Below, one piece after another: positions 6,218-59,915 of a DNA stretch of 64,000 nt (within the stretch, counting starts at the first letter, position 1; each line of letters opens with the position of its first letter). This DNA comes from Terriglobia bacterium (lineage in GTDB: Bacteria; Acidobacteriota; Terriglobia; 20CM-2-55-15), in assembly GCA_965263045.1 (NCBI GenBank), contig CBDHGK010000041.1, forward strand, positions 5,894,002 through 5,958,001. The letters run 5' to 3'. Below the pieces are notes generated by a model. That model saw only the letters and a list, made by a program, of their open reading frames with translations, was not told the DNA's origin and did not search any database. The translations under genes were made by a program, and so were the position numbers.

Positions 6218-6274
6218 GGCCTGACCGCGACAGGTGAATCCTCGTTGCGCCCCGCCTCTACCGGAGGAAGATTG

Positions 6275-12117: not shown

Positions 12118-12427
12118 CAAATATCCCTCCGTCATTTGCACAATGACGTTCTTTGACGGTCGTTGTTTTGTTGTGTGTTCGAGGTTTCGGCAGCATATAC
12201 GACTGGGAGTCGGCTGTCCACAGGACTGGCTCTACACCGTGATGGGTGCCCTGTGACGCCCGGACTACGCAGCTCAAGCGCGAAGTTGTCACGATCCAAC
12301 TCTCCGCTCTGTGTCCCAGGACGCTCTTCTTATGGAAGACTGAACGCCACTAGTCCCTGAACAAGCGTGATTGATGAGGAATTGAAAGTGGAATAACCGC
12401 CGAAGTACCCGAAATGCCCCCTCTCCG

Positions 12428-16505: not shown

Positions 16506-16939
16506 GGGGCTAGTTTTGAGCCATGTCAAAGGAATAACTATTCGCAAACGAGAATCTTCGCGGACGGGCTGGAAGAACGGAGACAACGGGTGCAGCAGCG
16601 GCACGCGATCTCTGTTTAGAATTCCGAATCCGGCAATGCGCGCATGAGCGGTCAACGTTTAATAGCGGGCCCTATGTTTTCCATGAGATTCCGCTTCGCG
16701 CGCCGGGTAGAATTGCGTGATCAACCATTTGGACCTGATTCGGAACTCCGATCCAGGTCGCACGTGCTGTGGTCCCGAACTGCACGATCGTTGACTCCAC
16801 AGTAGTGCTCATTTTTCTCTTCCCGTCCCGGAAGCCTATTTGAGTAGAATAGCGGGTGAATTCTAAAAACGTTTCGGTCCAGTCCGGGTCATGGGCCGTC
16901 CCGACCCGAAGAAAAGCGGTCGACCCTTGGGGGATAGAG

Positions 16940-19140: not shown

Positions 19141-20289
19141 ATGAGTGACATGCGATGGTTGTTCCTCACCCGATGCGGCGTGGCGCTCGCGGCCACCTCG
19201 TCCCTGATGCTCGCCGCGTGCGCCCCCAATCCGCCGCCTGAGCCAGAAATGGGAACAGGCGCCCCGACGGCGACGACCTCGAGTGAATTCGTCGACCGCC
19301 AGCTACCGAACCCCACGGGTGAGGTGATGCTGAACTGGGCACCGCTTCCGGATGGTCGGGAGTGGGGATCGACGGCCGGCATCGACATCGGTCCCGATGG
19401 GCATATCTGGACTTACGACCGTTGCGGCGGGCTGGCGCTGGCAGGCGGTTGCGAGGAGAATCCCGATCGGGATCCGATCTTCAAGTTCAACAAGGACACC
19501 GGCGAGATGATGACGAGCTTTGGCGCGGGGCTTTTCGTACTCCCGCATGGGCTCCACGTCGATGCAGAGGGAAACGTCTGGGTTACCGACTCCCAGGGCA
19601 ACGAGGCCGGGACGAAGGGGCATCAGGTCATCAAGTTCAGCGCGGACGGCGAGGAACTCCTGCGCCTGGGGACGCCCGGACAACCGGGCAGCGGTCCCGG
19701 TCAACTTAACGAGCCGTGCGACGTGATCACGGCGCCGAACGGTGACATTTTCGTCTCCGACGGGCATAGCGGCCAGAGTCCGGATCCGCCTCCGGGCGCC
19801 ACGGGGCGCATCCTGAAATTTGACAGTGAGGGCAACTTCATCACCTCGTGGGGCGAACTCGGTTTCAGGCCCGGCCAGTTCCGCACGCCGCACGCGCTGG
19901 AGTTCGATTCCGAGGGCCGACTGTATGTGGCCGACCGCGGCAATCATCGGATTCAAATCTTCAGCCAGGACGGCGAGTTGCTCGACACGTATTTGCACTA
20001 CAGCCGGGTCAGCGGGCTGTTCATCACGGACGACGACACGCTCTACGCGATCGATTCGGAATCTGACGCCCAGCGCCATCCGGGATGGCGCACCGGGGTG
20101 CGAATCGGTCCCGCGGGCGAGGACCGCGTGACGGCCTTCGTGCCACCCCACGCCCACGACACACGCGTATTGCAGGGTGTGGCCGGCGAAGGCGTGGCGG
20201 TTGATGCGGACGGCAACATCTACGCCGCAGAAGGCCCCGGATCGCGTCCGGTCGCCGGCGGTGGCATCACGAAGTACGTGGTCCCGTAG
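19141..20289 (+). CDS. NHL-repeat beta-propeller lipoprotein
   Basis: Lipobox (LMLAAC). Repeated NHL-like units (GQFRTPHALEFDSEGRLYVADRGNHRIQIF). Confidence 0.7.
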   Translation: MSDMRWLFLTRCGVALAATSSLMLAACAPNPPPEPEMGTGAPTATTSSEFVDRQLPNPTGEVMLNWAPLPDGREWGSTAGIDIGPDGHIWTYDRCGGLALAGGCEENPDRDPIFKFNKDTGEMMTSFGAGLFVLPHGLHVDAEGNVWVTDSQGNEAGTKGHQVIKFSADGEELLRLGTPGQPGSGPGQLNEPCDVITAPNGDIFVSDGHSGQSPDPPPGATGRILKFDSEGNFITSWGELGFRPGQFRTPHALEFDSEGRLYVADRGNHRIQIFSQDGELLDTYLHYSRVSGLFITDDDTLYAIDSESDAQRHPGWRTGVRIGPAGEDRVTAFVPPHAHDTRVLQGVAGEGVAVDADGNIYAAEGPGSRPVAGGGITKYVVP

Positions 20290-20583
20290 GCCACGCACGC
20301 ACTCGCTCGGCCGACGGGCGTCAAGGTTACGCCCGCCATCCAGGAGGACTGTCTCACGGCGGCCCGGGCGGGCGCTATCTTCACTTTGGACCTTGAAAAA
20401 AATCGGGTCGCCGCGGATTCGCTGGCTTTCGCTTTCCGGATCGACCCGTTCGCCCGCAACTGCCAACTGGCCGGCATCGACGACCTCGAGTATATCCTCC
20501 GGCATGAGGACGCGATCAAGGCCTTCGAGGCCAGGAACGATTAATCTGGGGACGGCGACCGAATACGGTCTCTGTCCCGAATG

Positions 20584-21924
20584 TCAGTAGGACGCAGCGA
20601 TCGACTCGAGCCGCTGCTGGATGTCGGCTTCAGGTATCCACTGCCCGCGAACCATCACGCCCCGACGCTGGGCGACGTGGCCCACATCCTCGAGGGGGTT
20701 GGCTTCCACAAGAATCAGGTCGGCGCGCGCGCCGACGCTGATCGTTCCGAAATCATCTTCGTTACCGAAGTACTCCCCGACAGCCCGCGTGCCGGAAGCG
20801 ATCACCTGGTAAGGCGACATGCCGGCCTCGACCATCCGCTCCATCTCTCGATGAATGGAGAAGCCCGGGACGCTGAAGACCTGTGGCGAATCGGTCCCGA
20901 GCATGATGCGTGCACCTCCCTCGTGCAGCGCCGTGAGGACGCGCATCCGGTTGGCGATCAACCTCCGAGCTGCGGCAGGGTCGAAGGCTGGATCGCCGAG
21001 AGCCCGGTCGATCCGCACCGTCCACTGCTCGACCATTGCCGGCGGCATGTACTTTGTTTCAGGATACGACACGACGGTTTCGCGCGGGATCGTGCCCCGG
21101 AGAACCTCCCATAGCGCCATTGTCGGTACGGCCCATGCACCGGCTTCTCGCGTCATCTCCACGACTTCCGCCAGACGGGCCTCGTCGAGATTCCCCGCCA
21201 CATCGGCCAGATACTGCACGTAACCGTCCAAGTGGTCGAAGGTCTCCTGGCCCGACTCGATTGCATGAATCAGGCCGACATCGGCCGGCACATGCCCCCC
21301 GAAGCGAATCCCCTCTTCGTGGGCTGTCTGAGCCATCGCGTCGTAAGTGGGAACGCTCAAACCGTTCTGAACCTTCAGCAGATGCCAACCCTCTGATTTC
21401 TGCGTCCGGACTCTCTCGATGGCGGCGTCGGGCGAGGTGACACTCTCGCCGTTGAAGCTGGGGCCAGCCAGATACAGACTGGGTCCTACCAGCTCCCCGG
21501 CATTCACGCGGTTTCGCAGCGCAATTTGGCCATCCCTACCCTGCATCCCGCGGACTGTGGTGACGCCGTTGGCAACATAGAGGAAAAGGACGTCTTCGGT
21601 GAGCTGCTGTGGCTGGTCCGGCCCTGGAATATGGCCATGCATTTCACCGAGTCCCGGCATCAGATACAGGCCGTTCCCATCGATGCGCGCTGCATTGGCG
21701 GGTACATCAACGCTTTCGGCCGGCCCGACGGCCACAATTCGATCCTCGCGCGTGAGGACGGTCTGACCCGGAACAACCTGTTCGAAGTCCATCCGCACGA
21801 GATTGACGTCGATAAACGCGAGGCCGGAACCGCCCGCATCGGTCGCAGGCGGAGCCTCGGCCGGCGCGCACGACACAGCCAGTATGACAAGTCCAGTCAG
21901 GAAGACAGGCAGTTTGACATTCAT
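20584..21924 (-). CDS. Amidohydrolase family protein (metal-dependent hydrolase), lipoprotein
   Basis: GEMHGHIPGP metal-binding HxH block. Amidohydrolase-like sequence throughout. N-terminal signal with Cys lipobox. Confidence 0.75.
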   Translation of the reverse strand: MNVKLPVFLTGLVILAVSCAPAEAPPATDAGGSGLAFIDVNLVRMDFEQVVPGQTVLTREDRIVAVGPAESVDVPANAARIDGNGLYLMPGLGEMHGHIPGPDQPQQLTEDVLFLYVANGVTTVRGMQGRDGQIALRNRVNAGELVGPSLYLAGPSFNGESVTSPDAAIERVRTQKSEGWHLLKVQNGLSVPTYDAMAQTAHEEGIRFGGHVPADVGLIHAIESGQETFDHLDGYVQYLADVAGNLDEARLAEVVEMTREAGAWAVPTMALWEVLRGTIPRETVVSYPETKYMPPAMVEQWTVRIDRALGDPAFDPAAARRLIANRMRVLTALHEGGARIMLGTDSPQVFSVPGFSIHREMERMVEAGMSPYQVIASGTRAVGEYFGNEDDFGTISVGARADLILVEANPLEDVGHVAQRRGVMVRGQWIPEADIQQRLESIAASY

Positions 21925-31295: not shown

Positions 31296-32711
31296 CTAAC
31301 GCGCACCACGCGTCGCTCCTGGAGGTACCGACAGATCCAGCCCCATTTGTTGGGCGACGATGAGCTGCATCATTTGAGCAAAATCAGTGGATGCCCGGTC
31401 GGTATCGCCAGCCCCGCCCGCACCCCCACCGCCACCCATGACGAGTGTCGGCACCTGACGTTGGGCATAAGCGCTTGCCCAGACCTGCTGTGCCTGTACA
31501 TAGGCGTGCAGTTTTTCCTGCAAGGCCCCGTCGGCCTGGAGAACGAGTCGCTTTCTTTCGGCCTCTCCCTGACCGAGGAGGATTTCTTCCTGCTTTTTCG
31601 CAGCGGCGGCCTGCCGGTCGAGCTCTGCAACCTCGACCCGCTGCCCGGCTTCAACCAGGGCTTGGACTTTTTCAAACTCGGCGACTTCCAGCCGCTGCTG
31701 TGCCTGAACCACCACTCGAATCTTCATCTGCTCTTCCGCGTACCGCTCCCGTGCCACGTCCGCCTTACCTTCCGCCTCGACCATCAGGGCTTCCTGCTCC
31801 GCCTGCTGGGCCTTGGCCATTGCGGTCGCCACCGCCATGAGCGCGGTCTGCTGAGTGCCGATCTGTTCGCGAACTTTCTCTGTGTAGTCAAACTGCTTGA
31901 CCTCGAAGTTCGCGAGCGTAATGCCGAGTCCATCCAGAGGATTTCGCTGATAGATCGGGTCCCCGTTCTCCTGCTTCTTGATTATCTTGAAGGTCTTCGT
32001 CACCTCCTGCCCCGACACCGGATCCACAACCTTTCGGGTTTCCTCCTCCGTTTCGTAGAGTCCGTTCTGGATCTGATCCCACGCCCAGTAGACATAGTCT
32101 GCACGCCTTTCCGAGTACGACTCGCGCGCAGACATCAGATTTGCAGTGAAGCGGAGGGCGTTCCTCACAACGGGGAGGATGAGCTTCTGTTCGAGCTCTG
32201 TGTAGTCGGCGTAGCCGTACTTGGTCACCACGTCGATGGCCTGCCGTTCGGAACTGGGAAGAATAATGCGCAGGGTGCCGGACACATCACAGAGCGAACC
32301 GTCATTGAAGCGCACTTCGATGGCCTGGGCCGACCCGCTCTCGTCGCTCACAAAGAAGAAGGTCTCCGCTTTCGGCCAGGTCACGATGTTGCTGAATAGC
32401 TGCAGCCACATTCCCGGCATCAGCTTGGCATCCATCTTGCCGCTGACGACCATCTGCCTAACCTGGTAGGAGTCCTGACTGACGGTCTCAACAATCCCAT
32501 AGCCCAGTACGGTCAGCATTCCCAGGATCGACCCCACGGCAGCAAACTGCTTGAATGACAGCAATAATGCGCCTGTCGAGCTTATCCGGGAGCTGAGACG
32601 CGTCGCTTTCAAGCAAGCGCCAAGGAAGGCCATTGCGGCGTTCTTCGCATTTTCTGCACTGCGTTCCCGTTCTGGCCTTGGTTTCGGTTCGTCCAATAGA
32701 CCCATGATCAA
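31296..32711 (-). CDS. SPFH/Band-7 (flotillin-like) domain protein
   Basis: SPFH domain, then a long A/E/Q-rich coiled coil and a glycine-rich tail. Confidence 0.75.
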   Translation of the reverse strand: MIMGLLDEPKPRPERERSAENAKNAAMAFLGACLKATRLSSRISSTGALLLSFKQFAAVGSILGMLTVLGYGIVETVSQDSYQVRQMVVSGKMDAKLMPGMWLQLFSNIVTWPKAETFFFVSDESGSAQAIEVRFNDGSLCDVSGTLRIILPSSERQAIDVVTKYGYADYTELEQKLILPVVRNALRFTANLMSARESYSERRADYVYWAWDQIQNGLYETEEETRKVVDPVSGQEVTKTFKIIKKQENGDPIYQRNPLDGLGITLANFEVKQFDYTEKVREQIGTQQTALMAVATAMAKAQQAEQEALMVEAEGKADVARERYAEEQMKIRVVVQAQQRLEVAEFEKVQALVEAGQRVEVAELDRQAAAAKKQEEILLGQGEAERKRLVLQADGALQEKLHAYVQAQQVWASAYAQRQVPTLVMGGGGGAGGAGDTDRASTDFAQMMQLIVAQQMGLDLSVPPGATRGAR

Positions 32712-33179: not shown

Positions 33180-34532
33180 TCACTCGCCGATGGCGATCAG
33201 GTTCTGTCGGGTGCGGATATACCATTTTCCGTCGACCAGCGCCGGTGAGGCCAACACAGGCTCTCCGATGTCATTCACGCGTAGTATTTCGAAGTTCCTG
33301 CCGGCGTTGAGCACAAAGGTCTCGCCGTTGTCGTTGGTGAAAAACACCTTGCCGTCCACGGCAACGGGTGAGGCTGAAAAGCCCTCCCTCCGGGCAACTC
33401 CGAGCCGTCCCTGCCAGAGGCTATCCCCCGTTCTCGCATCGAAGGAAGTGGCGATGCTGGCCATGTCGTTGACGATGTAAAGCTGGTCCGCGTAGAGAAT
33501 CGGAGACGGAACGAAAGGAGAGCCCCTGGGGCTCGACCACACCACATGGCTGGCTGTGACGTCGCCCGTGCCGCCGGGACGAATCGCCATCGTCGGACCG
33601 GCGCGACCCGAGGAACAAAAAAGCATCCCGTAGCCGACGACGGGGGTGGGGATCACTTCGAACGTATTGCCGTCGCACCACCAGAGTTCCTCTCCGGATT
33701 CGGGATCATAAGCTTGGACCCGGCGCTGGCTGTGGACGATGATTTCGTCATGACCGTCCACGTGGATGGCGATCGGCGAACCCCACCCGACGCTGGCTCG
33801 CCGCGCGGTCCGCCACAGCATGTCGCCTGTCCGGGTGTCGAATGCGGCAACGAACGAACCGGCGGAGTGATCCTGAAAAATGATGAGGCGGTCTTTGTAG
33901 ACCAGGGGTGATCCGGCCGTGCCGTGATAGTTGCTGATCTGGCCGATATCCTGAGTCCAGATCAGTGCGCCGTCCATACTGAACGCCATCAGTCCGCGGG
34001 CGCCGAAAGAGACATACACCCGTTCACCGTCGGTCGTCGGCGTCGCGGAGGCGTGACCATTCTTCTGATGCAGCCGTTCCCGGCTCCCGTCGGGAGCGAA
34101 GCCCTCCCACAGCATCATCCCGTCGGATCTCCGGTAGGCCAGAAGCGACAGCCGCTGGCCGCCGTCATAGGACGTCGTCAGGAAAATCCGGTCATCCCAC
34201 ACGATGGGCGACGAGTTCCCGCTCCCCGGGACGGACATTCTCCACAGTACGTTTTCAGTTTCCGACCAGGTGTCGGGATAGCCGCTGCCGGGAACCAGCC
34301 CCTGGCCCGAAGGACCGCGCCAGCGCGGCCAGTATTCGGCGCCCTCGCCTTCGACGGGAATCATTTGAATTCCGGATTCCCCTTCGGGTCGGGCGGGTTC
34401 GTTGATTCCGGCCTGGGGGACTGCTTCGACCCCACGGGGTCTGCCCCCCAGCGCCACCAGCCCCAGCAGGGCTGCGATTGCTGCACCGATCGCCAGGAAT
34501 GTCTTTCTGTCGGTGGTCCTGTTGTTCTTCAT
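33180..34532 (-). CDS. PQQ-like beta-propeller repeat protein (BamB-like fold), secreted
   Basis: Signal peptide. WPRWRGPSGQG motif and repeated propeller blades. Paralogue of 43424..44737. Overlaps the permease stop. Confidence 0.65.
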   Translation of the reverse strand: MKNNRTTDRKTFLAIGAAIAALLGLVALGGRPRGVEAVPQAGINEPARPEGESGIQMIPVEGEGAEYWPRWRGPSGQGLVPGSGYPDTWSETENVLWRMSVPGSGNSSPIVWDDRIFLTTSYDGGQRLSLLAYRRSDGMMLWEGFAPDGSRERLHQKNGHASATPTTDGERVYVSFGARGLMAFSMDGALIWTQDIGQISNYHGTAGSPLVYKDRLIIFQDHSAGSFVAAFDTRTGDMLWRTARRASVGWGSPIAIHVDGHDEIIVHSQRRVQAYDPESGEELWWCDGNTFEVIPTPVVGYGMLFCSSGRAGPTMAIRPGGTGDVTASHVVWSSPRGSPFVPSPILYADQLYIVNDMASIATSFDARTGDSLWQGRLGVARREGFSASPVAVDGKVFFTNDNGETFVLNAGRNFEILRVNDIGEPVLASPALVDGKWYIRTRQNLIAIGE

Positions 34533-34545
34533 CGGATACCTCAAC

Positions 34546-37500
34546 TCATTCTTCCCGAAGCGCCGGCAACAAGGGTGACCGGAAGGCCGCAACGGTCGCA
34601 GATAGCGATGCTGCCAATCCGACGGCCAGCACCCCGCCTAGGAGTCCAAGGACCAGTGTGCCGGGAAGTTGCCCCCCTCGATCCCAGATCACGGGTGCGG
34701 TGGCGAGAAAGGCTGAAGCGGCGCCCGTCAGCAGGCCGGCGACCAGCAGCGTCACGCTTTCGGCCATGGACATCAGCAGAAAATCCCGCTGCTGGTAGCC
34801 CAGGGCGCGCATGAGGGCCAGTTCCCGTCGACGCTCCAGGATGTTGCGCAACATCACGGCACCCAGGCCGACGGTTCCAAGCAACAGACCCAGACCGCCG
34901 AGCATCTGAAACGTCGACAGATAGGTGTTCTCGACCTGGTGGAACCGGGCCAGGTAGTCGGCGGTCGGTGTGGCGGACCCTCCGAAATCCAGCAGGGCGT
35001 TTTCGATCGACGCTACCGATGCTCCGACCCGGCCGGGTTCGGTCTCCACCAGCAGGAGACGATAGCCTTCGTGTTCGGGAAACAGGTCCAGAAAATTTTC
35101 CTCCGACATCACGAGCTCGCCCTGGAATATGCTGTCATCCAGAGCCGCCACGAGTCGCAGGCGAATCGATCGGTTTCCTGCCGTGATGACGATCTCATCA
35201 CCGAGTGCCCGATGCAGGACGTAGGTCATGGAGTTTGCGTCTCCAATCACGGGGATCGCACCGTCGGGTTCCTGACGATGGAGGAGCTGCCACGGATTGG
35301 CGCGTTCGGCTTCGGTCGAGGCCAGGGAATCGAGGAAGGCGAAACGGCCCTGTTCGATGAAGGCATTGCTGGGGGCCACAATCCGGGGGTTCGTCGGTTC
35401 GTAAAGGTTCAGACAACTGGCATCATCGCCTCCCCGGACGCGGAATGGCGCTACGCCGACCGAATCGAAGCCGCCCAGTCCGAGCAAGGCCTGGCCTTCG
35501 GTGCCGCTCGGGTCCTGTGAGAGCGGCAGCAGCGACTCGACGCGTACCGTGTACCCGCCCAGTCCCGAATCGGGACCGAGATCTGTAATCGTGTCTCTGC
35601 GGAAAGCGTCGACGGATAACAGGATGAACGTGGCTGAAGCGATCATGCCAATCGCGGTGACGCTTCGCGCCGGTCTGTAGGTGGCGTTTCGAAAACCCAG
35701 CCTTGAAACCGGCCACCAGCCCTGCCCCTGGAGCGCTTGTTGCCCGCCCCCACGAAAGCGGACCAGCAGAAAACACAGGCTGGCCGCCAGCACCGCCATT
35801 CCGCCACCGAAAAAGCCAGCGGCCCGTTCGACGAAACCAAATCCCGCGCCGGCGATGAGGACGGTACCCAGCCCGCTGAGCACAAACAGTCCCACGCGTG
35901 CCAGGCAGTTTCGACTCCGGGTTCCGCCGACGGTTTCATCGGACAGTTGTCCGGCCAGCAGGCGACGTTCGGATACTGTGGCGAGGCCACCGAGGGTCGA
36001 CCAGATGCAGGCCATGGCCGCAACAACACCGCCGGCTGCGCCCCCAGCAAGCGATGTGGCAGAAACATGCAGGCCGACGGCGGTAGTGCCTACCGCATCG
36101 ACCCACCAGGTGCCCAGCGCCGTGACCAGCAGCCACGCGTAGCCCAGCGCACCCACCACGCCGATAATGGCACTCACCGAGGAAAGCACGAGGCCCTCGG
36201 TCAGGAACAGTCCCCGGAGCATGGCGGGGGTAAAGCCGACCGATCGCAGCAACCCGACTTCGGGTCCCCGTCCTTCGACACTCAACTTGAAGAACAACGC
36301 CGCCAGCATGAGTGCCGAAACGACGAGGAAGAAACTGAAGTACACGAAGTACTCGCTGAAGTTCGTGGCGCCGCGCGAAGCTTCAAGACTCACAGATCGC
36401 ACCGAACGGACTTCCAGTCCCACACCTTGCGCATTCAGTGTCGTTCCCAGACGTTCGGCGTAGCTGGCGGCCCTCTCCTCAAACCCGGCAGGGTCTGCCT
36501 CAGCCGGGTTCGAAGTAAAGCGAATAGACGAGATCGAACCGTATCGGGATTGCCAGAGTTCACGGCCGACTTCGAGAGAAACGAAGGCCTTGGGCGTCGT
36601 TCGATAAAGCTCCCAAAACCGTTCATCGATGGGACGGATTCGACCCAAATCGATCGGAAATGGTGGGTCCCAATCGCCCACGGCCGCCGAATCGGTGATG
36701 CCCGGATAGTTTGGAGCCATCGCCCGATCGCCCGTCTCGACGGGAACGACTGCGGCCACTTCGAATTCCGCCGTGCGGGTGACCAACTGCCCGGGGTCCT
36801 CCCAGACGAAGTATTCCATCGACAGGCGGTCACCGGATGAAACCCCCAGGTCGTTTGCGGCCCAGTCGGTGAGGACAACCGGGGCGACGTCGGACCTTGC
36901 GGTCGGATTTGCCGCCGGAAGGAGCGTTCCAAGGTCAGTCGCGGTCACGAGTGAATACGGAATTTCACCTCGAGCGTTTCCCAGGCTGTTGACGAGGTAG
37001 GTGAATATTGGCCGGGCTTCCAGGTTGAGGGCCGTCGCAGCTTCAAGAGCGATCTGTTCTTTCTGATCGTCGATCAACCCTCCGGAGCCTTCGAGGATCA
37101 TCGCCCCGGCCGGCTCCATCAGTCTGAGGTTCAAACCCTGGTCACCCAATTCAGCTTCACTTTGAACGATGTTCTTGAGTGCCGCCGTAGCGATATCTTC
37201 GTCTGTACTGCCATCTCTGTTTTCGGAACTTGTGGACACAAGCAGCAGGTTGACGCGTTCCCCAAGATCGAGGTCCGCCTGGACCCGGTCCATCGGAAGA
37301 AAGACGGCATACACCTCCCCCTGAGTCGCGTCGAGAGAAAACTCGCCGAGTGCTTCGCGCCTGACCACAGCCGCGACATTCGCCCGGATGGTGCGGCCCA
37401 CGTCCTCCCTGTTTCCGTGGATCGATTCGAGTGGGATCTCCGACGGTCGCTGCACCCGAACCAGGATCGTATCGCCGGGTCCGGCATCGATCGCTTCGGC

Positions 37501-43423: not shown

Positions 43424-44737
43424 ATGGCGATTCTGTGCCTGGTCCTGACGATGGCTCTGGCAGTGTCCGCTATTGCTCAATCGCAGGCAGACGCAGAACG
43501 TTACTGGGGGCAGTGGCGGGGACCCATGGCAACCGGGGTGTCGGAAACGGCCAATCCGCCGGTCCAATGGAGTGAGACGGAGAACATTCGCTGGAAAGTG
43601 GAGATTCCAGGCCGTGGCAGCAGCTCACCCGTTATCTGGGGCGATCGGGTATTCGTGACATCGGCTGTTCCCGTGGGCGTGGATGGCGACGCGGCGCACG
43701 AGACGCGGGGTGGTGTGGAGCCTCGCGAGGCCCATCGATTTGTCGTTCTGGCGCTCGACCGCAGCGACGGCAGCGTCGTCTGGGAAAGGACCCTCCGGGA
43801 ACAGGTTCCCCATGAAGCGGGGCACTTTCGAAACTCCAGCTGGGCATCCAGTTCTCCCGTCACCGACGGCGAGCACCTGTTCGTCTATTTTGAGTCTTTC
43901 GGTCTCTATGCCCTCGATCTGGACGGAAACCTGCTTTGGGAGAAAGACTTCGGTGACAAAGGCCAGCGGAACCAGTTCGGTGAGGGGAGCACACCGGCGT
44001 TGTACGGCAATCGCCTGGTCATTGTCTGGGACCATCAGGGAGGCCAGTCCTTTGTCCTCGCGGTCGACAAACACACGGGAGCGGAAATCTGGCGTGTCGG
44101 TCGCGATGAAATCGACTCCTGGGCCACGCCCCTTGTCGTGGACCACGGAGGAGGGCCACAGGTGATCGTCCCGGGAAGGAACAGCCTGCTCGGCTACGAT
44201 CTCAGTGACGGCAGTATTGTCTGGGAGAGTCCCGGTTTGACGATGAACCCGATTCCGTCACCCGTTGTCGAGGACGGGCTGCTGATCGCCATGAGCGGTT
44301 TTCGGGGCAACAACCTCAAGGCCATCCGGCTCGACGATGCCCGCGGTGATATCAGTGAGACCGGAGCGATTGTCTGGGAGTTGAATCGGGATACGCCGTA
44401 CGTACCCTCGCCGCTGCTCTATGACGGCATCGTCTACTTCCTGAAAACGAATTCGGGGATTCTGTTCGCGTACAACGCAGCAACGGGCGAACCGTTGTTC
44501 GAGAATCAGCGCCTTCAGGGCCTGCCCAACGTATTTTCGTCTCCGGTAGGCGCACAGGGCCGCGTGTACCTGACCGGCCGTGAAGGGAGCACGCTCGTTA
44601 TTCGTCGGGGTACCGATTTCGAAGTGATGGCGATGAACACTCTCGACGACGGTTTTGACGCGTCTCCGGCGCTGGTCGACAATGAAATATACCTACGCGG
44701 AACCCGCTACCTCTACAGCATTGGTGAGGAATTCTGA
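43424..44737 (+). CDS. PQQ-like beta-propeller repeat protein (BamB-like fold), secreted
   Basis: Signal peptide, WGQWRGPMATG motif and repeated blades. Paralogue of 33180..34532. Confidence 0.65.
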   Translation: MAILCLVLTMALAVSAIAQSQADAERYWGQWRGPMATGVSETANPPVQWSETENIRWKVEIPGRGSSSPVIWGDRVFVTSAVPVGVDGDAAHETRGGVEPREAHRFVVLALDRSDGSVVWERTLREQVPHEAGHFRNSSWASSSPVTDGEHLFVYFESFGLYALDLDGNLLWEKDFGDKGQRNQFGEGSTPALYGNRLVIVWDHQGGQSFVLAVDKHTGAEIWRVGRDEIDSWATPLVVDHGGGPQVIVPGRNSLLGYDLSDGSIVWESPGLTMNPIPSPVVEDGLLIAMSGFRGNNLKAIRLDDARGDISETGAIVWELNRDTPYVPSPLLYDGIVYFLKTNSGILFAYNAATGEPLFENQRLQGLPNVFSSPVGAQGRVYLTGREGSTLVIRRGTDFEVMAMNTLDDGFDASPALVDNEIYLRGTRYLYSIGEEF

Positions 44738-47762: not shown

Positions 47763-48488
47763 ATGACCAAAATCAACTTATTCATAGTGATGGGATTCTT
47801 GGCTGCAATGGTCTATGCCCCACCCGCATACAGCGATTCGTTCGGTTTCGAGGGCGTCACCCACGGAACGATATTGAATACCCAGTTTTCCGGTGTCACG
47901 ATCAGCGCGGTAAATCTGGGTGGTGGCCCGGACCTCGCGGTCGCGTTCGACACCACACAGATATCAACATCAGACCCGGACCTGGAAGACCCGTGGGCCG
48001 CTGGAAACTTGGCCTCCACGACAGCCCTGGGGAATATCCTCATCATCCAGGAAAACTCGACGGGTATCGGTGACGGCGTCGCTGACGATCCCGACGACGA
48101 AGGAAGTCGTCCGTCGGGTCAGTTGATTCTGGCCTTTCATTCTTCCTACAGCAGCTTCGGGTTCGATCTCGTCGATGTTGAAGACACAGTGGCGACTCCG
48201 GTGGGCGAACGAGGTTTTTTAGAGTTCTACAGCGGCGCCGCCCTGGTCAAGACGGTGCAATTTATGGACTTCTCAGCCGGTGGACTGCTCGACAATGGTG
48301 CGATTTACGGCAACCGTTCCGCGAACCGAATCACGGCCTTCAGTGTCGGGACATTTGACCGAGTTGTCGTCAACCTCGGTGGTTCCGGAGGTATCGACAA
48401 CATCCAGGTTCCCGAGCCCACGACGCTCTTACTCCTGAGCATGGGTTTGACGGGGCTCGCGCTTAGCCGCAAACGTCCCCGGAAATAG
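47763..48488 (+). CDS. PEP-CTERM sorting-domain secreted protein
   Basis: C-terminal VPEPTTLLLLSMGLTGLALSRKRPRK (PEP motif, TM helix, basic tail). N-terminal signal peptide. Confidence 0.8.
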   Translation: MTKINLFIVMGFLAAMVYAPPAYSDSFGFEGVTHGTILNTQFSGVTISAVNLGGGPDLAVAFDTTQISTSDPDLEDPWAAGNLASTTALGNILIIQENSTGIGDGVADDPDDEGSRPSGQLILAFHSSYSSFGFDLVDVEDTVATPVGERGFLEFYSGAALVKTVQFMDFSAGGLLDNGAIYGNRSANRITAFSVGTFDRVVVNLGGSGGIDNIQVPEPTTLLLLSMGLTGLALSRKRPRK

Positions 48489-50113: not shown

Positions 50114-50779
50114 ATGAGCGAATCGCGACGCTTGGCACTATTGATTTCCGTTACGTTGTGTTTGGTTACGATCCCACCCCGGGCATTCGCACAAGAAGGA
50201 CCGTATCCGTCCGAATCCGGCAAGATTGAGTACACGGTCGAAGGGGTGCAAAGTGGCACCATGATCCGCTATTGGAGAAATTGGGGATTCGAGCGGGCCG
50301 AGTTTAACGATTTGAGCGTGTCGATGTTCGGAATCAGTCAGGTGACCCGCACCCATACCATCACCAACGCCGATACCGTGACCAGCATCGATTTGACGGA
50401 CAACACCGCGACTCAAATCCAGAACCCGGTATCCGACTTTTACGACATGTCGCCGGACGAATTGGAGAACCTCAATCAGACGATGATGCAGAACCTGGGC
50501 GGGCAACTGACCGGCACCGAAGTGATTGCGGGTCAGGAGTGTGAAGTCTGGGAAGTGGCCTCGATCGGGGGGAATATGTGCTTGTGGAGCGGCGTGGAGC
50601 TTCGGAATTCCGGTGGGCTCGGCGGCATTTCGGTCACGATGACGGCGACCCTCATTGATACGAGCGATCCGGGCGAGGAGCCTTTCACGGTTCCCGCTGG
50701 CGTCACATTTTCCACGCCGGGAGCCGGCACCCCCAACATTCCCAACCTCGAGGATCTGCTGCAGGGCCTGGGCCAGTAA
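50114..50779 (+). CDS. Hypothetical secreted protein
   Basis: Signal peptide MSESRRLALLISVTLCLVTIPPRAFAQ. No recognised domain. Confidence 0.4.
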   Translation: MSESRRLALLISVTLCLVTIPPRAFAQEGPYPSESGKIEYTVEGVQSGTMIRYWRNWGFERAEFNDLSVSMFGISQVTRTHTITNADTVTSIDLTDNTATQIQNPVSDFYDMSPDELENLNQTMMQNLGGQLTGTEVIAGQECEVWEVASIGGNMCLWSGVELRNSGGLGGISVTMTATLIDTSDPGEEPFTVPAGVTFSTPGAGTPNIPNLEDLLQGLGQ

Positions 50780-50785
50780 GCGGAT

Positions 50786-51130
50786 TCAGCCAAACACGCG
50801 GGTGTAGGTGGGCTCGTCGAATCCGACGATCAATGTCCTGCCCTGTCGAAGCGCCGGGGCCCGGAGCTTCCCATTACGGCAGATGGCTTTCAACAGGTCG
50901 TCCGGCCCCGGTTTCTGTTTTCTGAGATCGAAAAAGACCACTTTCTTACCGACACAGGCATAGATTTGATCGACCTGATTGATCAGGTCCAGGACCTCTG
51001 CTGCCCGAACAGCAACCTTCCGTGCGTTCACCTCTGCCTTGATTTCAACTTTGTGTTGCGCAAGAAACTCCTGCGTCCGTCCACAGGTCTTTCAAGAGGG
51101 TCGATGATAACTCCAGTCCAACTGAGGCAT
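50786..51130 (-). CDS. ArsC/Spx-family (glutaredoxin-fold) selenoprotein with UxxC motif. In-frame UGA at 51094..51092 read as selenocysteine.
   Basis: The ORF track lists only 50786..51031 (GTG start). The frame continues upstream across a single TGA to an ATG at 51130. That gives MPQLDWSYHRPS-U-KTCGRTQEFLAQHKVEIKAEV..., which aligns the UGA with the catalytic Cys of ArsC (YHNPRCSKSR). Length 114 aa matches ArsC/Spx. Confidence 0.65.
51070..51087 (-). promoter_or_regulatory. Candidate SECIS hairpin for the ArsC-like selenoprotein
   Basis: mRNA reads UGA-AAGA-CCUGUG-GACGGA-CGCAGG: a 6-bp stem with a 6-nt G-rich loop, starting 4 nt after the UGA. The stem is short, so confidence is low. Confidence 0.3.
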
Positions 51131-51575
51131 GGTCCCTACTCCGGGTTGCAGGCCTGGTTTTGGAGACAGACCAAATCAGGCGTATCGCGATCCCTACCGG
51201 ACCCTGTGATTGCAGTTCGGCGGGACGCATAATGACGGGGGATGATTCCTGTTGTCAGTCCCTCCCGCGGATCAGTATAGCAAGCGGCTTTCGGCGTGCA
51301 GGATCTCCGGTTCCAGCCGCGAGTCTCTGTCTTGCCACCGCCGTCGGGTTTCGTGCAGCCTAACAGACGCCTCACCCCGCTACTCCCAGAGTGTGTCGTG
51401 CCGTGCCCTGCGGACACTACCGGTCCCGAATATGCCGGTTACAGTGATCTTGCCCGATCGTGGCGCTATGATAACGATCGGCGGCGGAACTGGGCGCGGC
51501 GGGCCCAGGCGGGAACGGTGCCAGACCGCGTTGCCCGCCGGCAGGAATCAGATGCTCGATAAACACTAATAGAGG

Positions 51576-53573
51576 TTGCGTGTCATGAATGAGAAGAAAA
51601 ATTCGCTGAAGTGGTACCGGGTGGCGGACGTCGACGAACTCGGGTCGGGCCGTGTGAAAACCGTAACGGCGGACACGCAATCGATGGCGCTGACCCACGT
51701 CAACGGTGAGTTCACCGCGATGGATAACCGGTGCCCACATCAGGGAGGTCCACTCGGCGAAGGGTCCATCGAAGTCGGCGTCGATGATCAGTGCTGGTTG
51801 CGCTGCCCCTGGCACGGTTGGGACTTCGACCCGCAGACGGGCCGACCGCCGGGCGGACACGAGGACAGCGGTCAAACCCTCTATCCCCTTGAAGTGCGGT
51901 CAGACGGTATTTATGTCGGGCTTCCGACTGAGGTGCCCCGGGTCGACACCGTCACCGACGTCATGGCTGAAACGATGACGAACTGGGGCGTGGGCACCGT
52001 CTTTGGGATGGTGGGCCACTCGAACCTGGGACTGGCCGACGCACTGCGTCTCCAGGAGGAGAAAGGCCGCCTGAAATACTACGGGGTCCGTCACGAAGGT
52101 GCGGCTGCCTTCGCCTGCTCCGGCTATGCGAAGCTTACGGGCCGGCCCGCAGCCTGTCTGACGATCGCCGGTCCGGGTGCGACCAACCTGATGACCGGGC
52201 TCTGGGATGCGAAAGTGGACCGGGCGCCGGTTCTGGCACTGACCGGTCAGGTTGATGTGCAGGTCCTCGGACCCGGGGCTTTTCAGGAAATCGATCTCGC
52301 GGCAGCATTCGCACCCGTGGCCCGCTTCAGTCAAACCGTGCTCCATACCTCCAAACATGCGGAGCTGATGACGCTGGCGTGCAAGAGCGCCATCGTCGAA
52401 CGCGATGTGGCCCACTTGATCTTTCCCGACGACGTCCAGACCCTTCCCGCCTCGGAGTCGGGCCGCGCCTCAACTCCAGATGGCCGGGTGTCCGTTCCAA
52501 CAATTGCACCCGACGACGCGGTACTGAATGACGCGATTGCCCGGATCAACAAATCGGCGCGACCCATCATCGTCGTCGGCTATGGGGCGCGCGACACGAT
52601 GGGCGACATTGTCGACCTGGCCGAGCGACTGCACTCGCCCGTCCTGACGACGTTCAAAGCCAAGGGCCAGATCGCCGATCATCATCCCCTGGCCGCGGGT
52701 GTCCTGGGCCGTTCGGGAACGCCCGTGGCGAGTTGGTTCATGAACGAGTGCGACCTGATCCTGGCCCTGGGGGCCTCGTTTTCCAACCACACGGGAATCA
52801 CCCCGACGAAACCCATCATCCAGGTCGATTTCGATCGCATGGCACTGGGCAAGTTTCATCCCGTGACGGTGCCGCTGTGGGGGGAAATCGGCGTCACATC
52901 CCGACGCATGGCCGACAGGATCTCCCAGCCAGCCGGGTCCATCGACCAGCGGCCCGAACTCGTCGAACGCTGGGCGATCTGGCGCGAGGAAAAACGGAGC
53001 CGGATCAACGATGATCAGGGCCGGGGACTAAATTCTGCGGCCGTCTTCGCCGCGCTCACAACTGCGATTCCTGCCGACGCCATTATCGCCGTCGATGTCG
53101 GAAACAATACGTATTCTTTCGGGCGGTACTTTGAATGTCAGGACCAGCGGATCCTGATGTCGGGCTATCTGGGCTCCATCGGGTTTTCGTTTCCCGCGGC
53201 AATGGGCGCGTGGGCTGCGACCGAGGACGGCGACGCATACAGAGGACGCAAAGTCGTGTCTGTCAGCGGCGATGGCGGATTCGGTCAGTACATGGGTGAA
53301 TTTACAACGGCCGTTAAATATGGCATGAACATCACCCACGTCCTGCTCAACAACTCACAGCTCGGCAAGATTTCCAAAGAACAGCGTGCCGGTGAGTGGC
53401 CCGTGTGGCAAACGGCGCTGCACAACCCCAGTTTCGCCAGCTACGCCCGGGAGTGTGGCGGCAAAGGCGTGCGGGTGACTCGGTCGGAAGAACTCGCTCC
53501 GGCACTGGCCGAGGCCCTGGCCCATCCTGGCCCCGCACTCGTTGAGATTGTCACTGATGCCGACCTGATTTAG
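51576..53573 (+). CDS. Fusion protein: N-terminal Rieske [2Fe-2S] domain plus thiamine-diphosphate-dependent enzyme (POX/ALS family)
   Basis: The Rieske CxH...CxxH block is CPHQGGP...CPWHGW. It is followed by all three domains of a TPP enzyme: N-terminal Pyr (GVGTVFGMVGHSN), central, and C-terminal PP with GDGGFGQYMGEF. Confidence 0.75.
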   Translation: MRVMNEKKNSLKWYRVADVDELGSGRVKTVTADTQSMALTHVNGEFTAMDNRCPHQGGPLGEGSIEVGVDDQCWLRCPWHGWDFDPQTGRPPGGHEDSGQTLYPLEVRSDGIYVGLPTEVPRVDTVTDVMAETMTNWGVGTVFGMVGHSNLGLADALRLQEEKGRLKYYGVRHEGAAAFACSGYAKLTGRPAACLTIAGPGATNLMTGLWDAKVDRAPVLALTGQVDVQVLGPGAFQEIDLAAAFAPVARFSQTVLHTSKHAELMTLACKSAIVERDVAHLIFPDDVQTLPASESGRASTPDGRVSVPTIAPDDAVLNDAIARINKSARPIIVVGYGARDTMGDIVDLAERLHSPVLTTFKAKGQIADHHPLAAGVLGRSGTPVASWFMNECDLILALGASFSNHTGITPTKPIIQVDFDRMALGKFHPVTVPLWGEIGVTSRRMADRISQPAGSIDQRPELVERWAIWREEKRSRINDDQGRGLNSAAVFAALTTAIPADAIIAVDVGNNTYSFGRYFECQDQRILMSGYLGSIGFSFPAAMGAWAATEDGDAYRGRKVVSVSGDGGFGQYMGEFTTAVKYGMNITHVLLNNSQLGKISKEQRAGEWPVWQTALHNPSFASYARECGGKGVRVTRSEELAPALAEALAHPGPALVEIVTDADLI

Positions 53574-53715
53574 AAATGCGGGCGCACGGGCGCCCGTTGA
53601 GAGATCCCTCGGCCCGGGCGCACCACAGACCGCGATCGATTGACCCGCGACGGTTCAGCGCACGTTGTTCAGGGTCCTGGGCTCCGCCCCGCGGAGCTTC
53701 GCGTACACTGGAACC

Positions 53716-54645
53716 ATGAACGCCCCCCCGAAGGTTGTCGTGATCGGCCCTGGCGCCGTAGGCGGATACTTTGGCGGCAAGCTGGCCCTCAATGGAGCAG
53801 GGCTGACGCTGGTGGGACGGCCGGGACTTCGGGGTGCTCACATGGAGACGCTCGCACGCGACGGCCTGCGCATCGAGGCACGCGATCTGGAGGCGACCAT
53901 TCCGGTCAAGGTCACCGACGACCCCAGCGTGGTTGGTGATGCCGACCTGATACTCGTCGCCGTGAAAACGCTGGACACTCCCGCGGCTGCCCGCGCTATC
54001 GCGCCCCACCTCCCTCCGGACGCCATTGTCGTCAGTTTGCAGAATGGGGTCGACAACGTCGATCGACTGGCAGCGGGTGGGGTGGATGCCCTCCCGGGGG
54101 TGGTCTACGTTGCCGTCGCCATCGACAGTCCCGGTGTGGTCACACACCGGGGCCGTGGCGATCTGGTGATTGGGCATGCCACCCGCGCGGATGACGTGCA
54201 GCGTGTGGCCGACTGGTTCGAGTCGGCCGGCGTGCCCAGTCGTGTGTCCGACCGGATCGAAGCAGAATTGTGGGGCAAGCTGGTGATCAACGCCATGGCC
54301 AACGCCATCAGCGCGTTGACCGGCGCGCCCTACGCCACCGTTGCGGGACACGAACCGTCGATGGGTGTGGCGATGGACGTCGCCGCCGAGGCCTTCCGCG
54401 TTGCGCGCGCGGCGGGGATCGGGCTGGATGAGGCAGCGGTCACCGCCGAGGCGGCGACGATCTACGGAGCGATGGGCCAGGCAACCTCCTCCACACAGCA
54501 GGATATCGCGCGGGGTAAACCCACCGAGATCGACGCGCTCAACGGCGTGATCGCACTGAAGGGAAAGGCCTTGGGTGTTCCCACCCCCGTCAACCGGGCC
54601 CTGTGGGCTCTTGTTTCTCTGCGTGAACAGATCGAGGCGCGCTGA
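53716..54645 (+). CDS. panE: 2-dehydropantoate 2-reductase family (ketopantoate reductase-like) oxidoreductase
   Basis: Rossmann VVVIGPGAVGGYFGGKLA, and an ApbA/PanE family C-terminal domain. Confidence 0.7.
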   Translation: MNAPPKVVVIGPGAVGGYFGGKLALNGAGLTLVGRPGLRGAHMETLARDGLRIEARDLEATIPVKVTDDPSVVGDADLILVAVKTLDTPAAARAIAPHLPPDAIVVSLQNGVDNVDRLAAGGVDALPGVVYVAVAIDSPGVVTHRGRGDLVIGHATRADDVQRVADWFESAGVPSRVSDRIEAELWGKLVINAMANAISALTGAPYATVAGHEPSMGVAMDVAAEAFRVARAAGIGLDEAAVTAEAATIYGAMGQATSSTQQDIARGKPTEIDALNGVIALKGKALGVPTPVNRALWALVSLREQIEAR

Positions 54646-54799
54646 AGCGTACGACAATCAGGCCAGGGGTTGATCTTTCCTACCCCAGCCGGAATCACGC
54701 CGTCATCGGCCAACTGGTCTTTGGCCGGGCTTCGCGCGGAGCAGCAGGACGTCGCTGCTTTCTGTGCCCCTCATCAGCCGCGCCGTCTACATCGACTGC

Positions 54800-57351: not shown

Positions 57352-57734
57352 TGTCTTATTTGCTTATTTGATTCGGGGGTCTGGGGGGCTTGCCCCCCAG
57401 CGTATCCCCCGGGGTGACCAGAAATGAGACGGCAATGGCGTACACGGAGCACCTAACCAATTACAACAGCGTATACGATATCTGTCTGTACCGGGCAGAT
57501 GATCCAGGGCTTGGGACGGCATCTCAGGTATTCGAGCAGGTTGGGTATACAGGGCAGCGCCTGACGGATGTTGAAGTTGGGGGTTAAAGGCTCGGCTCAA
57601 TTCCCGGAGCGACAATTCTCCAGAATTGATCCAGTGAGTGGCCGAGGGCGGCACCGGATTCGACCACGAATGCATTCGACCAGAGCGTTAGCTTGACGGG
57701 AAGATGCGCATGGCCTTGGGCGAAAGGGAATGAA

Positions 57735-58073
57735 CTATCGGCCGAGCAGAGCTGCGACGATGGAGAGCAGGATGGCGACCTGAATGCTGACCAACCAGTG
57801 GAACTGACGGGCGACTTCCTGGCGAAACAGGTCTGCCTTCTGGTCCAGGGCGTCGATTCGAGAACCCAATTCTTCGCGAAAGCGATCCAATTTCTGGTCC
57901 AGAGCGTCGATCCGAGAACTCAAATCTCCGCGAAAGCGATCCATCTTTTGATTCACGGAATCGACTCTCCCATTTAAGTGGAGCAGAAGTTCTCGAATCT
58001 CTCCAAATCCCCGGGAGTGTTCGTCCAACTTGCCTTCCAAGAAAGCCACCCTTTCCTCTAAAGATGGAGGCAT
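57735..58073 (-). CDS. Coiled-coil protein with C-terminal TM anchor and 18-aa tandem repeats
   Basis: DRFRGDLSSRIDALDQKL / DRFREELGSRIDALDQKA repeats, encoded by a 54-bp tandem repeat (~57840-57950). C-terminal hydrophobic helix. Confidence 0.5.
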   Translation of the reverse strand: MPPSLEERVAFLEGKLDEHSRGFGEIRELLLHLNGRVDSVNQKMDRFRGDLSSRIDALDQKLDRFREELGSRIDALDQKADLFRQEVARQFHWLVSIQVAILLSIVAALLGR

Positions 58074-58478
58074 GCAGAACCTCCGTCCCGATTATATCGC
58101 GGAGTGCATTGTTTCATGCCTTATTCCAAGCATGTCGGATGCCGTTCGCGAATGAGACACTTTGGGCGGGAAAACTCGCGCAGATAGGGAATTCGGGTGC
58201 GTTTAATTCGCACCAAATGCGACTTAAGGGGAGGGCCTTGTCGGGGAACCGAGCGCGCGCGTACGCGATTCGAGCGGCCTTGAGGCACCATTAGAGGGAC
58301 CGGCACCCGTTCGGTCGATTCATCTGCTTCGACGGGATGCACCGTGCTCCTCGAGGGGGAACCCATGAGCGACAAGCCGCATGACCGGCGATGGGGATCC
58401 CAACTGCAGCTTCCGCCCACCGGTTCGCATATGTGCCAGCGACATGTGTAACCCATAGCGGCACACTGCGACCAAGCG

Positions 58479-58760
58479 ATGATTCAGTCATTCGAGGAAG
58501 CGAGACTGAAGCGTTCTTTTGAAACGGGGAATAACAAAGGCATTCCACCGCGCATGGTGCGGCGCATCGAACGACGTCTGGCCGCTCTTGACGATGCCAC
58601 GGCACGGATTGATCTGGGACAGTTCCCCGGAATTATGCTCCACGCAACAAAGGGCAATCGCAAAACCGAGTGGGCGGTGTGGGTGACCGGTAGCTGGCGA
58701 ATAACGTTTAAGTTTGCCCGTGGGAACGTGGTGGACGTGGACCTTGAGGACTATCATTAA
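58479..58760 (+). CDS. higB: HigB-type toxin (RelE/ParE superfamily)
   Basis: MIQSFEEARLKRSFETG...LHATKGNRKTEWAVWVTGSWRITFKF...VDLEDYH closely matches the HigB consensus. Confidence 0.8.
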   Translation: MIQSFEEARLKRSFETGNNKGIPPRMVRRIERRLAALDDATARIDLGQFPGIMLHATKGNRKTEWAVWVTGSWRITFKFARGNVVDVDLEDYH

Positions 58761-58851
58761 CCGTGTTCACTCCGGGATGCACCGCGTGGACTGAACGTCT
58801 GCATCAGTTTGTGTAGCAGTTGGCAATAGTAGATGAATGGGGGGCGACTCC

Positions 58852-59598
58852 ATGAAGCGAGAAAAGCGAGCACTGCGTGCTATACATCCCGGGGAAATGA
58901 TCCGGGAAGAGATACTGTCGGAACTGGATATGAGTCAGGCCGAGTTTGCCGGTCGACCGGGCGTCTCTCGCAGGGCTTCTTCAATGTCGGACTCGAACGT
59001 TCATATCACCGGAAGGAGACCCACAGTGACCATCAACCGGCTAACTCGATACGTTGCTTCCGGCTTTTTCGCCATGCTGCTGCCCCTGCTCGCTCAGGCA
59101 CAAGAGCCAGTTCGGTCCTTTGAGCAACTGGACGTGCAAATGATGCTTGCGGAAGGGGATGAGGTTCGGCTCGTCGACGTCGACGGCGTGACGGTCAATG
59201 GCCGCTTTGAGTCGGTTTCCGCTGATTCGATGGATGTGGTTGTTGATGGAAGCCGGCGCTCGATACTCGAAGAGTCCGTTCGGGAGATCAGGTTGCAACG
59301 GCCGGATTCGCGTGAGAATGGCGTGCTCATTGGTCTCGCCGCGGGCGTGGGTGCGGGTTATGTCGGTGTGGTCAGTGCATGTGATCTCCCCGACCCGGAA
59401 TGTGGGGCCAATGTAGGCGCAATCTTGTTCCCGGTTTTCGCCGGCGTCGGTGTCCTCGCTGGTTTTCTGATCGATCACCTGATTCACGGTTACGACACTG
59501 TGTTTGAAGCTCCGAATCCTGCCCAAAGTAGCCGCATCGCGATTTTTCCGGTTGTCGAGAAGCAGGAGAAAGGCATCCAGGTCAGCATTTCTTTCTGA
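58852..59598 (+). CDS. HigA-like HTH (XRE-family) N-terminus, continuous in frame with a 190-aa secreted/membrane module. The module has its own SD-GTG at 59026.
   Basis: IHPGEMIREEILSELDMSQAEFAGRPGVS resembles the HigA HTH. No stop occurs until 59598. The internal start is ggaAGGAGacccacaGTG, followed by a signal peptide (MTINRLTRYVASGFFAMLLPLLAQA) and two Gly-rich TM segments. Confidence 0.5.
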   Translation: MKREKRALRAIHPGEMIREEILSELDMSQAEFAGRPGVSRRASSMSDSNVHITGRRPTVTINRLTRYVASGFFAMLLPLLAQAQEPVRSFEQLDVQMMLAEGDEVRLVDVDGVTVNGRFESVSADSMDVVVDGSRRSILEESVREIRLQRPDSRENGVLIGLAAGVGAGYVGVVSACDLPDPECGANVGAILFPVFAGVGVLAGFLIDHLIHGYDTVFEAPNPAQSSRIAIFPVVEKQEKGIQVSISF

Positions 59599-59750
59599 TC
59601 TTGCTCTCTCCTGATCGCGACGCCCGACCCATCGTTTAATCCTTTCTAAGTCAATAATATTCTGAACCACGCCGAATACGATCGGGGTAACCGGAAGAGG
59701 TAGTACCGCCGTTGAGGAGTCTTTAGTCAATTTTTTCGGGGAGGGCGCAC

Positions 59751-59915
59751 ATGACTGCACCACGTGTATCTCAGAAATACATGGGATTGATTGGAAAGTT
59801 TTCGCTTCGTCCAATTCGGTCCGATCTGGATTTGAAAGAGGCTGACAGTCCTCACCTCTGTGCGACCCGGACATGCTTGCACCAACCGAAGAAAATGATA
59901 GAGGCAGAGCTATAA
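59751..59915 (+). CDS. Possible small ORF (54 aa) with an SD and a downstream terminator-like hairpin/T-tract
   Basis: GGGAGGG lies 6 nt before the ATG. Followed by AAAACGCGGCCGCCTCGTGCCCGACGCGTCCCGTTTTT. Lower GC than surrounding genes. Not in the ORF track because it is under 60 aa. Confidence 0.2.
   Translation: MTAPRVSQKYMGLIGKFSLRPIRSDLDLKEADSPHLCATRTCLHQPKKMIEAEL

Follow-up and report, generated by a model that had tools for sequence, protein, structure and literature searches.

A predicted ArsC-family selenoprotein of 114 residues annotated as a truncated 81-residue open reading frame

A minus-strand gene at 50786..51130 of the window (the whole 64-kb stretch of DNA that was analyzed) very probably encodes a true representative of the ArsC-family selenoproteins already known, with a predicted selenocysteine (Sec) at an in-frame UGA, 51094..51092. 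The open reading frame runs from ATG 51130..51128 to the terminal TGA 50788..50786, a length of 114 codons plus stop supported by the frame reading, the profile score and the orthologues described below, and the TGA at 51094..51092 is its sole in-frame interruption. A preliminary description of this DNA had extended a shorter ORF upstream across this single TGA to ATG 51130, giving 114 aa, and both frame and translation are exactly as it claimed. The translation of 50786..51130 reads MPQLDWSYHRPS, the TGA, and then KTCGRTQEFLAQHK through to a C-terminal VFG that completes the 114 codons before the stop; with both ends written out, it is MPQLDWSYHRPS, TGA, KTCGRTQEFLAQHKVEIKAEV...GKLRAPALRQGRTLIVGFDEPTYTRVFG, stop. 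On the minus strand, the DNA around the Sec codon is TCT TGA AAG ACC TGT. The TGA (51092..51094), assigned from a TGA/Cys column in the orthologues, would specify residue 13, the first of a U-K-T-C redox motif, and the TGT (51083..51085) specifies residue 16, the putative resolving Cys of UxxC, a position aligned with Cys13 of Spx that holds Cys in 35 of the 38 Sec-type sequences and Ser in the other three.

The start of the gene is intact. Upstream of the TGA, back as far as the preceding in-frame stop, no in-frame ATG, GTG or TTG occurs other than ATG 51130, and 14 in-frame codons separate that stop from the start; a Shine-Dalgarno-like GGAG (51139..51142, minus strand), recognized by reading the sequence, is positioned 8 nt 5' of the ATG. 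Further upstream, ~100 nt from the ATG, is a weak consensus match to a sigma-70-like promoter, CTGACA-18-CATTAT (51229..51258, minus strand); with 1 match found against 0.3 expected, the motif carries no evidence of function. The mechanical ORF list holds only an 81-aa piece at this locus (50786..51031, minus strand; P0001), which starts at GTG 51031 and is also the public call, an annotation artefact: gene callers shorten the 114-aa protein to 81 aa by taking the Sec UGA for a stop, and they choose GTG 51031 because an AAGG/GAGG-like purine run precedes it.

The full-length protein belongs to a curated family. With Sec replaced by Cys, it scores 117.1 bits against NCBIfam NF041106.1, "ArsC family (seleno)protein" (ArsC_rel_Se_1), above the curated cutoff of 85 bits; residues 4-109 align to model positions 1-107 of 107, and replacing Sec by X lowers the score to 110 bits, still above 85. 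The 81-aa call reaches 67.6 bits, falls short of the 85-bit cutoff and covers model positions 32-107 only, so that the first 31 positions are missing; what the short ORF annotates is thus a truncated member of a known selenoprotein family. The earlier placement of the protein among ArsC/Spx-family selenoproteins with UxxC is borne out by the score of 117 bits vs 85, while the Pfam ArsC profile itself, PF03960, stays below its gathering threshold of 24 bits: its match of 20.8 bits (E = 5e-4), which aligns residues 8-110 with profile positions 1-77 of 79, indicates a relationship no closer than the superfamily. A precomputed PF03960 match exists for some homologues (P0016, P0020, P0037 and P0040). 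The Spx/MgsR model TIGR01617 gives 26.2 bits vs a cutoff of 75, and 20-40 bits for the Cys-form homologues; TIGR02196 and Pfam Glutaredoxin match the 114-aa protein weakly.

The identity of residue 13 rests on its orthologues. A homologue search over 5.8 billion proteins returns 53 clusters, most of them 66-102 aa long with inconsistent starts downstream of the TGA column. Five full-length metagenomic homologues (P0020, P0023, P0029, P0031 and P0035) have Cys at the Sec column (e.g., HRPGCKTCG), and the HR..C..C of the Cys forms falls exactly on it; four full-length homologues have "W" there, and in the DNA of one of these, a Tara Oceans contig (L045), the W codon is TGA. A scan of one genome per species yields 39 loci, of which 38 span the N-terminus; their hosts include Terriglobia, Solibacteraceae, Planctomycetota, Zixibacteria, Methylomirabilia, Ignavibacteria and others, at least five phyla. 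The Sec column is TGA in 37 of the 38 and TGC (Cys) in the remaining locus, L031, and the recurrence of the TGA in 37 independent genome loci is more than chance. Conservation of Cys or Sec at this column and the existence of Cys-containing orthologues, both proposed earlier as checks on the assignment, are thereby confirmed: Cys is present in L031 and the five metagenomic homologues, and all six Cys codons are confirmed on DNA (L031 and L040-L044).

Conservation extends upstream of the TGA. The peptide that precedes it, (M)xx(V/I/L)DWSYHR(P/N)(G/A/S), shows protein-level conservation in all the loci and across phyla, and its 12 residues are continuous with the Cys-form homologues. The preliminary description had named as refuting its proposal a family whose members start at the GTG and have no conserved N-terminus, a case excluded by the cross-phylum conservation of DWSYHRP. 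The closest relatives, from Terriglobia and Solibacteraceae, are 64-80 % identical and keep the same architecture. In three loci, the motif is UxxS instead of UxxC, the residues after the TGA being KTSAKTQ, TSSKRAQ and TTSAKTQ in L030 (e.g., L030:253-307), L032 and L034, respectively; these loci keep the downstream hairpin described next, and they echo the "ArsC 1, UxxS" class of the GOS survey (PMC2398784).

Downstream of the UGA, the coding sequence contains a SECIS-like hairpin, CGCAGGA-GUU-UCUUGCG (51059..51075, minus strand), recognized from comparative pairing and codon bias, with arms at 51075..51069 and 51065..51059 and a GUU loop at 51068..51066. The stem starts 16 nt after the UGA, the element occupies positions 20-36 counted from the U of UGA, the loop G-U falls at +27/+28 on the same count, and the whole is embedded in the codons for T-Q-E-F-L-A. 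The same hairpin, equally far from the UGA, recurs in all Sec-type sequences but the two most distant ones, L037 and L038. When the 36 Sec-type sequences are aligned without gaps, 96.7 % of the cells pair and the GUU loop is invariant. Compensatory double changes occur in three of the seven pairs (G-C to U-A once, A-U to G-C twice), and one more pair alternates between G-U and A-U; when the 3' partner is slid as a control, pairing drops to 28-71 % with almost no double changes.

Synonymous codons within the hairpin are almost fixed: Thr is ACG in 27 of 28 cases, Glu is GAG in 33 of 33, Leu is CUU in 34 of 38 despite six possible codons, and Ala is GCG in 26 of 34, whereas a nearby Val codon spreads about equally over its four synonyms. 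Protein conservation alone therefore cannot explain the hairpin. The few substitutions are coupled across the stem, Glu GAG to Gly GGG accompanying Phe UUU to UUC and Gln CAG to Arg CGG accompanying Leu CUU to CUC. The local folding energy is -6.1 to -8.5 kcal/mol in 36 of the 38 Sec-type genes vs 0 to -4 in all six Cys-form genes, every one of which lacks the stem; even L042, a Cys form with nearly the same peptide (KTQDFLA), has UUA and GCC codons that break the pairing. The hairpin is thus tied to the UGA, not to the protein.

[quoted passage not shown] Judged by sequence comparison, this hairpin is a bacterial SECIS, because it is 96.7 % paired and covarying, its codons are near-fixed and the Cys forms do not have it; the SECIS that had been expected after the UGA would thus be this conserved, covarying element with a loop G. 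Support for the hairpin is comparative: the 65 nt that follow the UGA, folded as a single sequence, give z = -1.35, which is not significant. Searches with Rfam produced no SECIS match, either across the whole window at the gathering threshold or in 50700-51300 at a permissive E-value, and returned one chance lncRNA match only.

The preliminary description had pointed to a short G-rich hairpin following the UGA. A hairpin that is probably the one meant exists, CCUGUG-GACGGA-CGCAGG (51070..51087, minus strand), and it is not the conserved element, which is the overlapping 51075..51059. Considered as a SECIS candidate, the proximal hairpin 51087..51070 was rejected: it is 79.5 % paired among 36 Sec-type orthologues, its covariation is not above that of shuffles, its outer pairs are unpaired in about half of the sequences, and it is present in the window and unconserved outside Terriglobia. 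Its 3' arm is the 5' arm of the SECIS, which makes the two structures mutually exclusive.

The SECIS resembles those of the E. coli fdhF type in being an intra-ORF hairpin soon after the UGA with G-U in its apical loop. The fdhF element has G23/U24 in its loop and contains a bulged U; the present hairpin is shorter, with 7 bp and a 3-nt loop, has no bulged U, and its loop is ~4 nt further from the UGA. In the two most distant Sec-type loci, both from Planctomycetota (L037:951-1005 and L038:3031-3085), the TGA is kept and the consensus GUU hairpin is missing; other local hairpins are predicted there, e.g., ACCUUC-CUC-GAAGGU in L038. These differences suggest SECIS turnover within the family.

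In the mechanism that we propose, this organism would recode UGA 51094..51092 to Sec, with SelB and Sec-tRNA(Sec) recruited by the 17-nt hairpin 51075..51059 inside the coding sequence, and translation would terminate at the second UGA, 50788..50786, which is not followed by such a hairpin. One mRNA would thus carry a Sec-UGA and a stop-UGA told apart by the downstream hairpin alone. In the folded protein, Sec13 would sit at the N-terminus of helix 1 and pair with Cys16 as U-x-x-C, and the two residues may cycle through an intramolecular selenenylsulfide. Domain/profile and RNA-family searches found no SelA, SelB or SelD gene and no tRNA-Sec within the 64 kb. A search of the window for readable-TGA segments with a redox-motif filter and codon-usage scoring, too noisy at 60 % GC, did not locate the other selenoprotein gene that the preliminary description had counted in the window.

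Other ways of reading the TGA have to be weighed against this mechanism. A suppressor tRNA, instead of Sec-tRNA(Sec), could insert Cys or some other standard amino acid at the UGA, the candidate decoders being a selC*-type tRNA-Cys(UCA), possibly acting via a SelB paralogue, or an acidobacterial allo-tRNA. Opal suppressors of the selC* tRNA-Cys type are known, as are allo-tRNAs whose anticodons are suppressors, the latter reported in Acidobacteria; however, selC* is reported from Firmicutes, Thermodesulfobacteria, Nitrospirae and Proteobacteria, not from Acidobacteria (Mukai et al., PMC5389517). Cys is functionally acceptable at the Sec column, as the Cys-form homologues indicate, yet TGA and a SECIS are maintained together in five phyla, as is classically the case where Sec insertion depends on SelB, and the name that NCBI curators gave to the family is (seleno)protein. 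Suppression by such a tRNA is, on balance, very improbable.

The gene might instead be a relic in a lineage that has lost Sec decoding, where translation would stop after 12 residues and at most an 81-aa GTG-initiated fragment would be made. Selenoprotein loss is frequent in bacteria (PMC1794560), the Sec machinery was not found within the 64-kb window, and the 81-aa ORF is what the public annotation records (P0001). Against decay stands a gene in which the start codon, Shine-Dalgarno sequence, N-terminal peptide, UxxC and a SECIS hairpin identical to the consensus are all intact, as is the architecture of the closest relatives at 64-80 % identity; the 81-aa fragment, for its part, has neither strand 1 nor helix 1 of the fold, nor the active site, and scores below the NF041106 cutoff. 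Loss of decoding appears very improbable. A still simpler alternative takes the TGA as a true stop that separates a 12-codon leader ORF from an independent 81-aa gene, the upstream similarity being coincidental. The purine run before GTG 51031 could serve such a gene, but the peptide before the TGA is conserved across phyla and continuous with the Cys-form homologues, the truncated calls start inconsistently, at lengths from 66 to 102 aa, and some orthologues have Ile or Leu in place of the Val encoded by the GTG; a genuine stop at the TGA is extremely improbable. Decoding of the UGA as Sec is thus the reading preferred here.

Among solved structures, Spx regulators are closest to the family profile (3l78, E = 6e-6). 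The AlphaFold (AF2) model of the Cys-form homologue P0020 has a pLDDT of 88.6 and a thioredoxin-like core; in this model, Cys13, the equivalent of Sec, is predicted to cap the N-terminus of helix 14-25, where the redox-active residue canonically sits, and the middle subdomain contains a beta-hairpin. What the 81-aa fragment misses of this fold is its first strand and first helix, together with the active site. A Foldseek search of the PDB with the P0020 model places Spx, YffB and "ArsC-related" proteins first, followed by glutaredoxins, with TM ~0.52-0.55. Alignment with B. subtilis Spx by hhalign (97 % probability) is full length, puts UxxC on C10xxC13 and LRAP on LRRP, and is consistent with the PDB matches of the family profile. 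The corresponding alignment with R773 ArsC is partial and has 28 % probability, with Sec on Cys12. Sec thus aligns with the catalytic N-terminal Cys, on Spx Cys10 and R773 ArsC Cys12 alike, as the preliminary description held.

The active site of R773 ArsC consists of the catalytic Cys12 and an Arg60/Arg94/Arg107 triad. In the weak 28 % alignment, the position of Arg60 is G/K and the aligned region stops before Arg94 and Arg107; the invariant R90 in LRAP may, by its sequence context, correspond to R94 of ArsC. Like glutaredoxin-coupled ArsC of the R773/E. coli type (PF03960), the protein belongs to the superfamily, aligns its Sec with Cys12 and shares the YH(N/R)P.C context. Unlike those enzymes, it scores 20.8 vs 24 with PF03960, aligns at 28 % in hhalign and has a CxxC-type motif that is absent from ArsC itself. 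No ars genes are found near the selenoprotein gene, either among its neighbors in the window or in the neighborhoods of the 39 loci. The arsenate reductase likeness noted earlier thus holds for superfamily membership and for the alignment of Sec with Cys12, and gives way beyond that, as Spx and YffB are nearer by sequence and fold.

With Spx/MgsR (PDB 1z3e, 3l78 and 6gho; TIGR01617), the family shares the position of the CxxC switch, and Foldseek probability is 1.0. The Gly52 region of Spx is the contact surface for the RNAP alpha-CTD; here this region falls in an alignment gap, there is no C-terminal extension, and Sec replaces Cys10. The family also differs from Spx/MgsR in its TIGR01617 score (26 bits vs 75), in its TM of ~0.52-0.55, in the beta-hairpin of the middle subdomain and in its hosts, which are Acidobacteriota, Planctomycetota and other non-Firmicutes phyla. 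YffB (PA3664, PDB 1rw1) and the YruB/NrdH-type glutaredoxin-like proteins resemble it in their thioredoxin-like fold and in an N-terminal redox motif at helix 1; its scores with them are much weaker, however, and those proteins differ in length and lack Sec.

The protein is closer to Spx/YffB than to true arsenate reductases, by sequence and fold, and represents a distinct subfamily of the ArsC/Spx superfamily, with the look of a small UxxC oxidoreductase. Roles as an arsenate reductase or as a regulator of the Spx type are both improbable for it, and the "arsenate reductase" label of the family is probably a misnomer; its predicted activity is most likely that of a small selenol/thiol-disulfide oxidoreductase. 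A more speculative idea, for which we would hold out little expectation, would make the protein a redox sensor or regulator that depends on selenium, a "seleno-Spx" outside Firmicutes, instead of a housekeeping oxidoreductase. This idea arises because the TGA is kept in 37 of 38 loci, Spx proteins are the nearest structural relatives and the 17-nt SECIS is near-identical across phyla, its nucleotides almost the same from Terriglobia to Planctomycetota, Zixibacteria and Ignavibacteria. If it were true, the near-invariant SECIS would be the outcome of a recent transfer between phyla or of an exceptionally strict recognition code of SelB. The small oxidoreductase remains the preferred assignment.

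The selenoprotein family is already known, and the error is limited to the public gene call. "ArsC-like" was among the bacterial selenoprotein families listed in 2006 (PMC1794560), the GOS survey of 2008 distinguished "Arsenate reductase (ArsC) 1, UxxS" and "Arsenate reductase 2, cd03032, UxxC" (PMC2398784), and a 2022 review includes "Arsenate reductase-like protein, COG1393, UxxC" (PMC9312934). The finding is thus not new, because ArsC-like selenoproteins have been in print since 2006 and the protein passes a dedicated NCBIfam model. It agrees with the ArsC-like/COG1393 UxxC selenoproteins of Zhang, Gladyshev and co-workers in having Sec first in UxxC, a length of ~114 aa, and Sec and Cys forms in one family; from the known NF041106/ArsC-like selenoproteins it shows no substantive difference, although public data annotate the present copy as an 81-aa ORF. 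The understanding of Sec decoding is unchanged. The main value lies in annotation: in the public record, as in most metagenomic orthologues, the listed product is 66-102 aa long and has no active site, and such truncated calls hide the selenoprotein, so that selenium use is under-counted in soil Acidobacteriota and Planctomycetota. Annotation pipelines gain a compact SECIS consensus, i.e., a 7-bp stem with a GUU loop, 16 nt past the UGA, in T-Q-E-F-L-A codons.

Genomic context offers no clue to the substrate, since no neighboring gene is conserved beyond close relatives across the 39 loci, where only antisense shadow ORFs and close-relative synteny are seen. Its two neighbors in the window are a Rieske-TPP enzyme, transcribed divergently, and, on the other side, an uncharacterized secreted protein in convergent orientation. 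The former, 665 aa at 51576-53573 on the plus strand, is an unusual domain fusion of an N-terminal Rieske [2Fe-2S] domain with a complete thiamine-pyrophosphate enzyme made up of TPP_N, TPP_M and TPP_C. Elsewhere in the window, an amidohydrolase ORF, 20584-21924 on the minus strand, ends at TGA 20586..20584 and is followed in frame by an open stretch of 400 aa (19303-20505) without a Pfam match; this stretch is probably a high-GC shadow ORF, a long ORF being present on the opposite strand. No Pfam family was found for the long ORFs 6245-7723 (plus strand), 31296-32711, 53551-54657 and 59041-59874 (all minus strand), and 57352-59040 is a gap of 1.7 kb without a convincing ORF; at these ORFs and in the gap, the true genes may lie in other frames. 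A DDE-type transposase (DDE_Tnp_1_4; 12427-14007, plus strand) marks a mobile element. Two full PQQ-dependent dehydrogenases face each other at 14143-16167 (minus strand) and 16856-19012 (plus strand), and two PQQ_2 beta-propeller proteins are encoded at 33180-34592 and 43424-44737. The protein at 47763-48488 (plus strand) carries a PEP-CTERM sorting motif at its C-terminus, which is consistent with the soil Acidobacteriota-like origin indicated by the closest orthologues of the selenoprotein.
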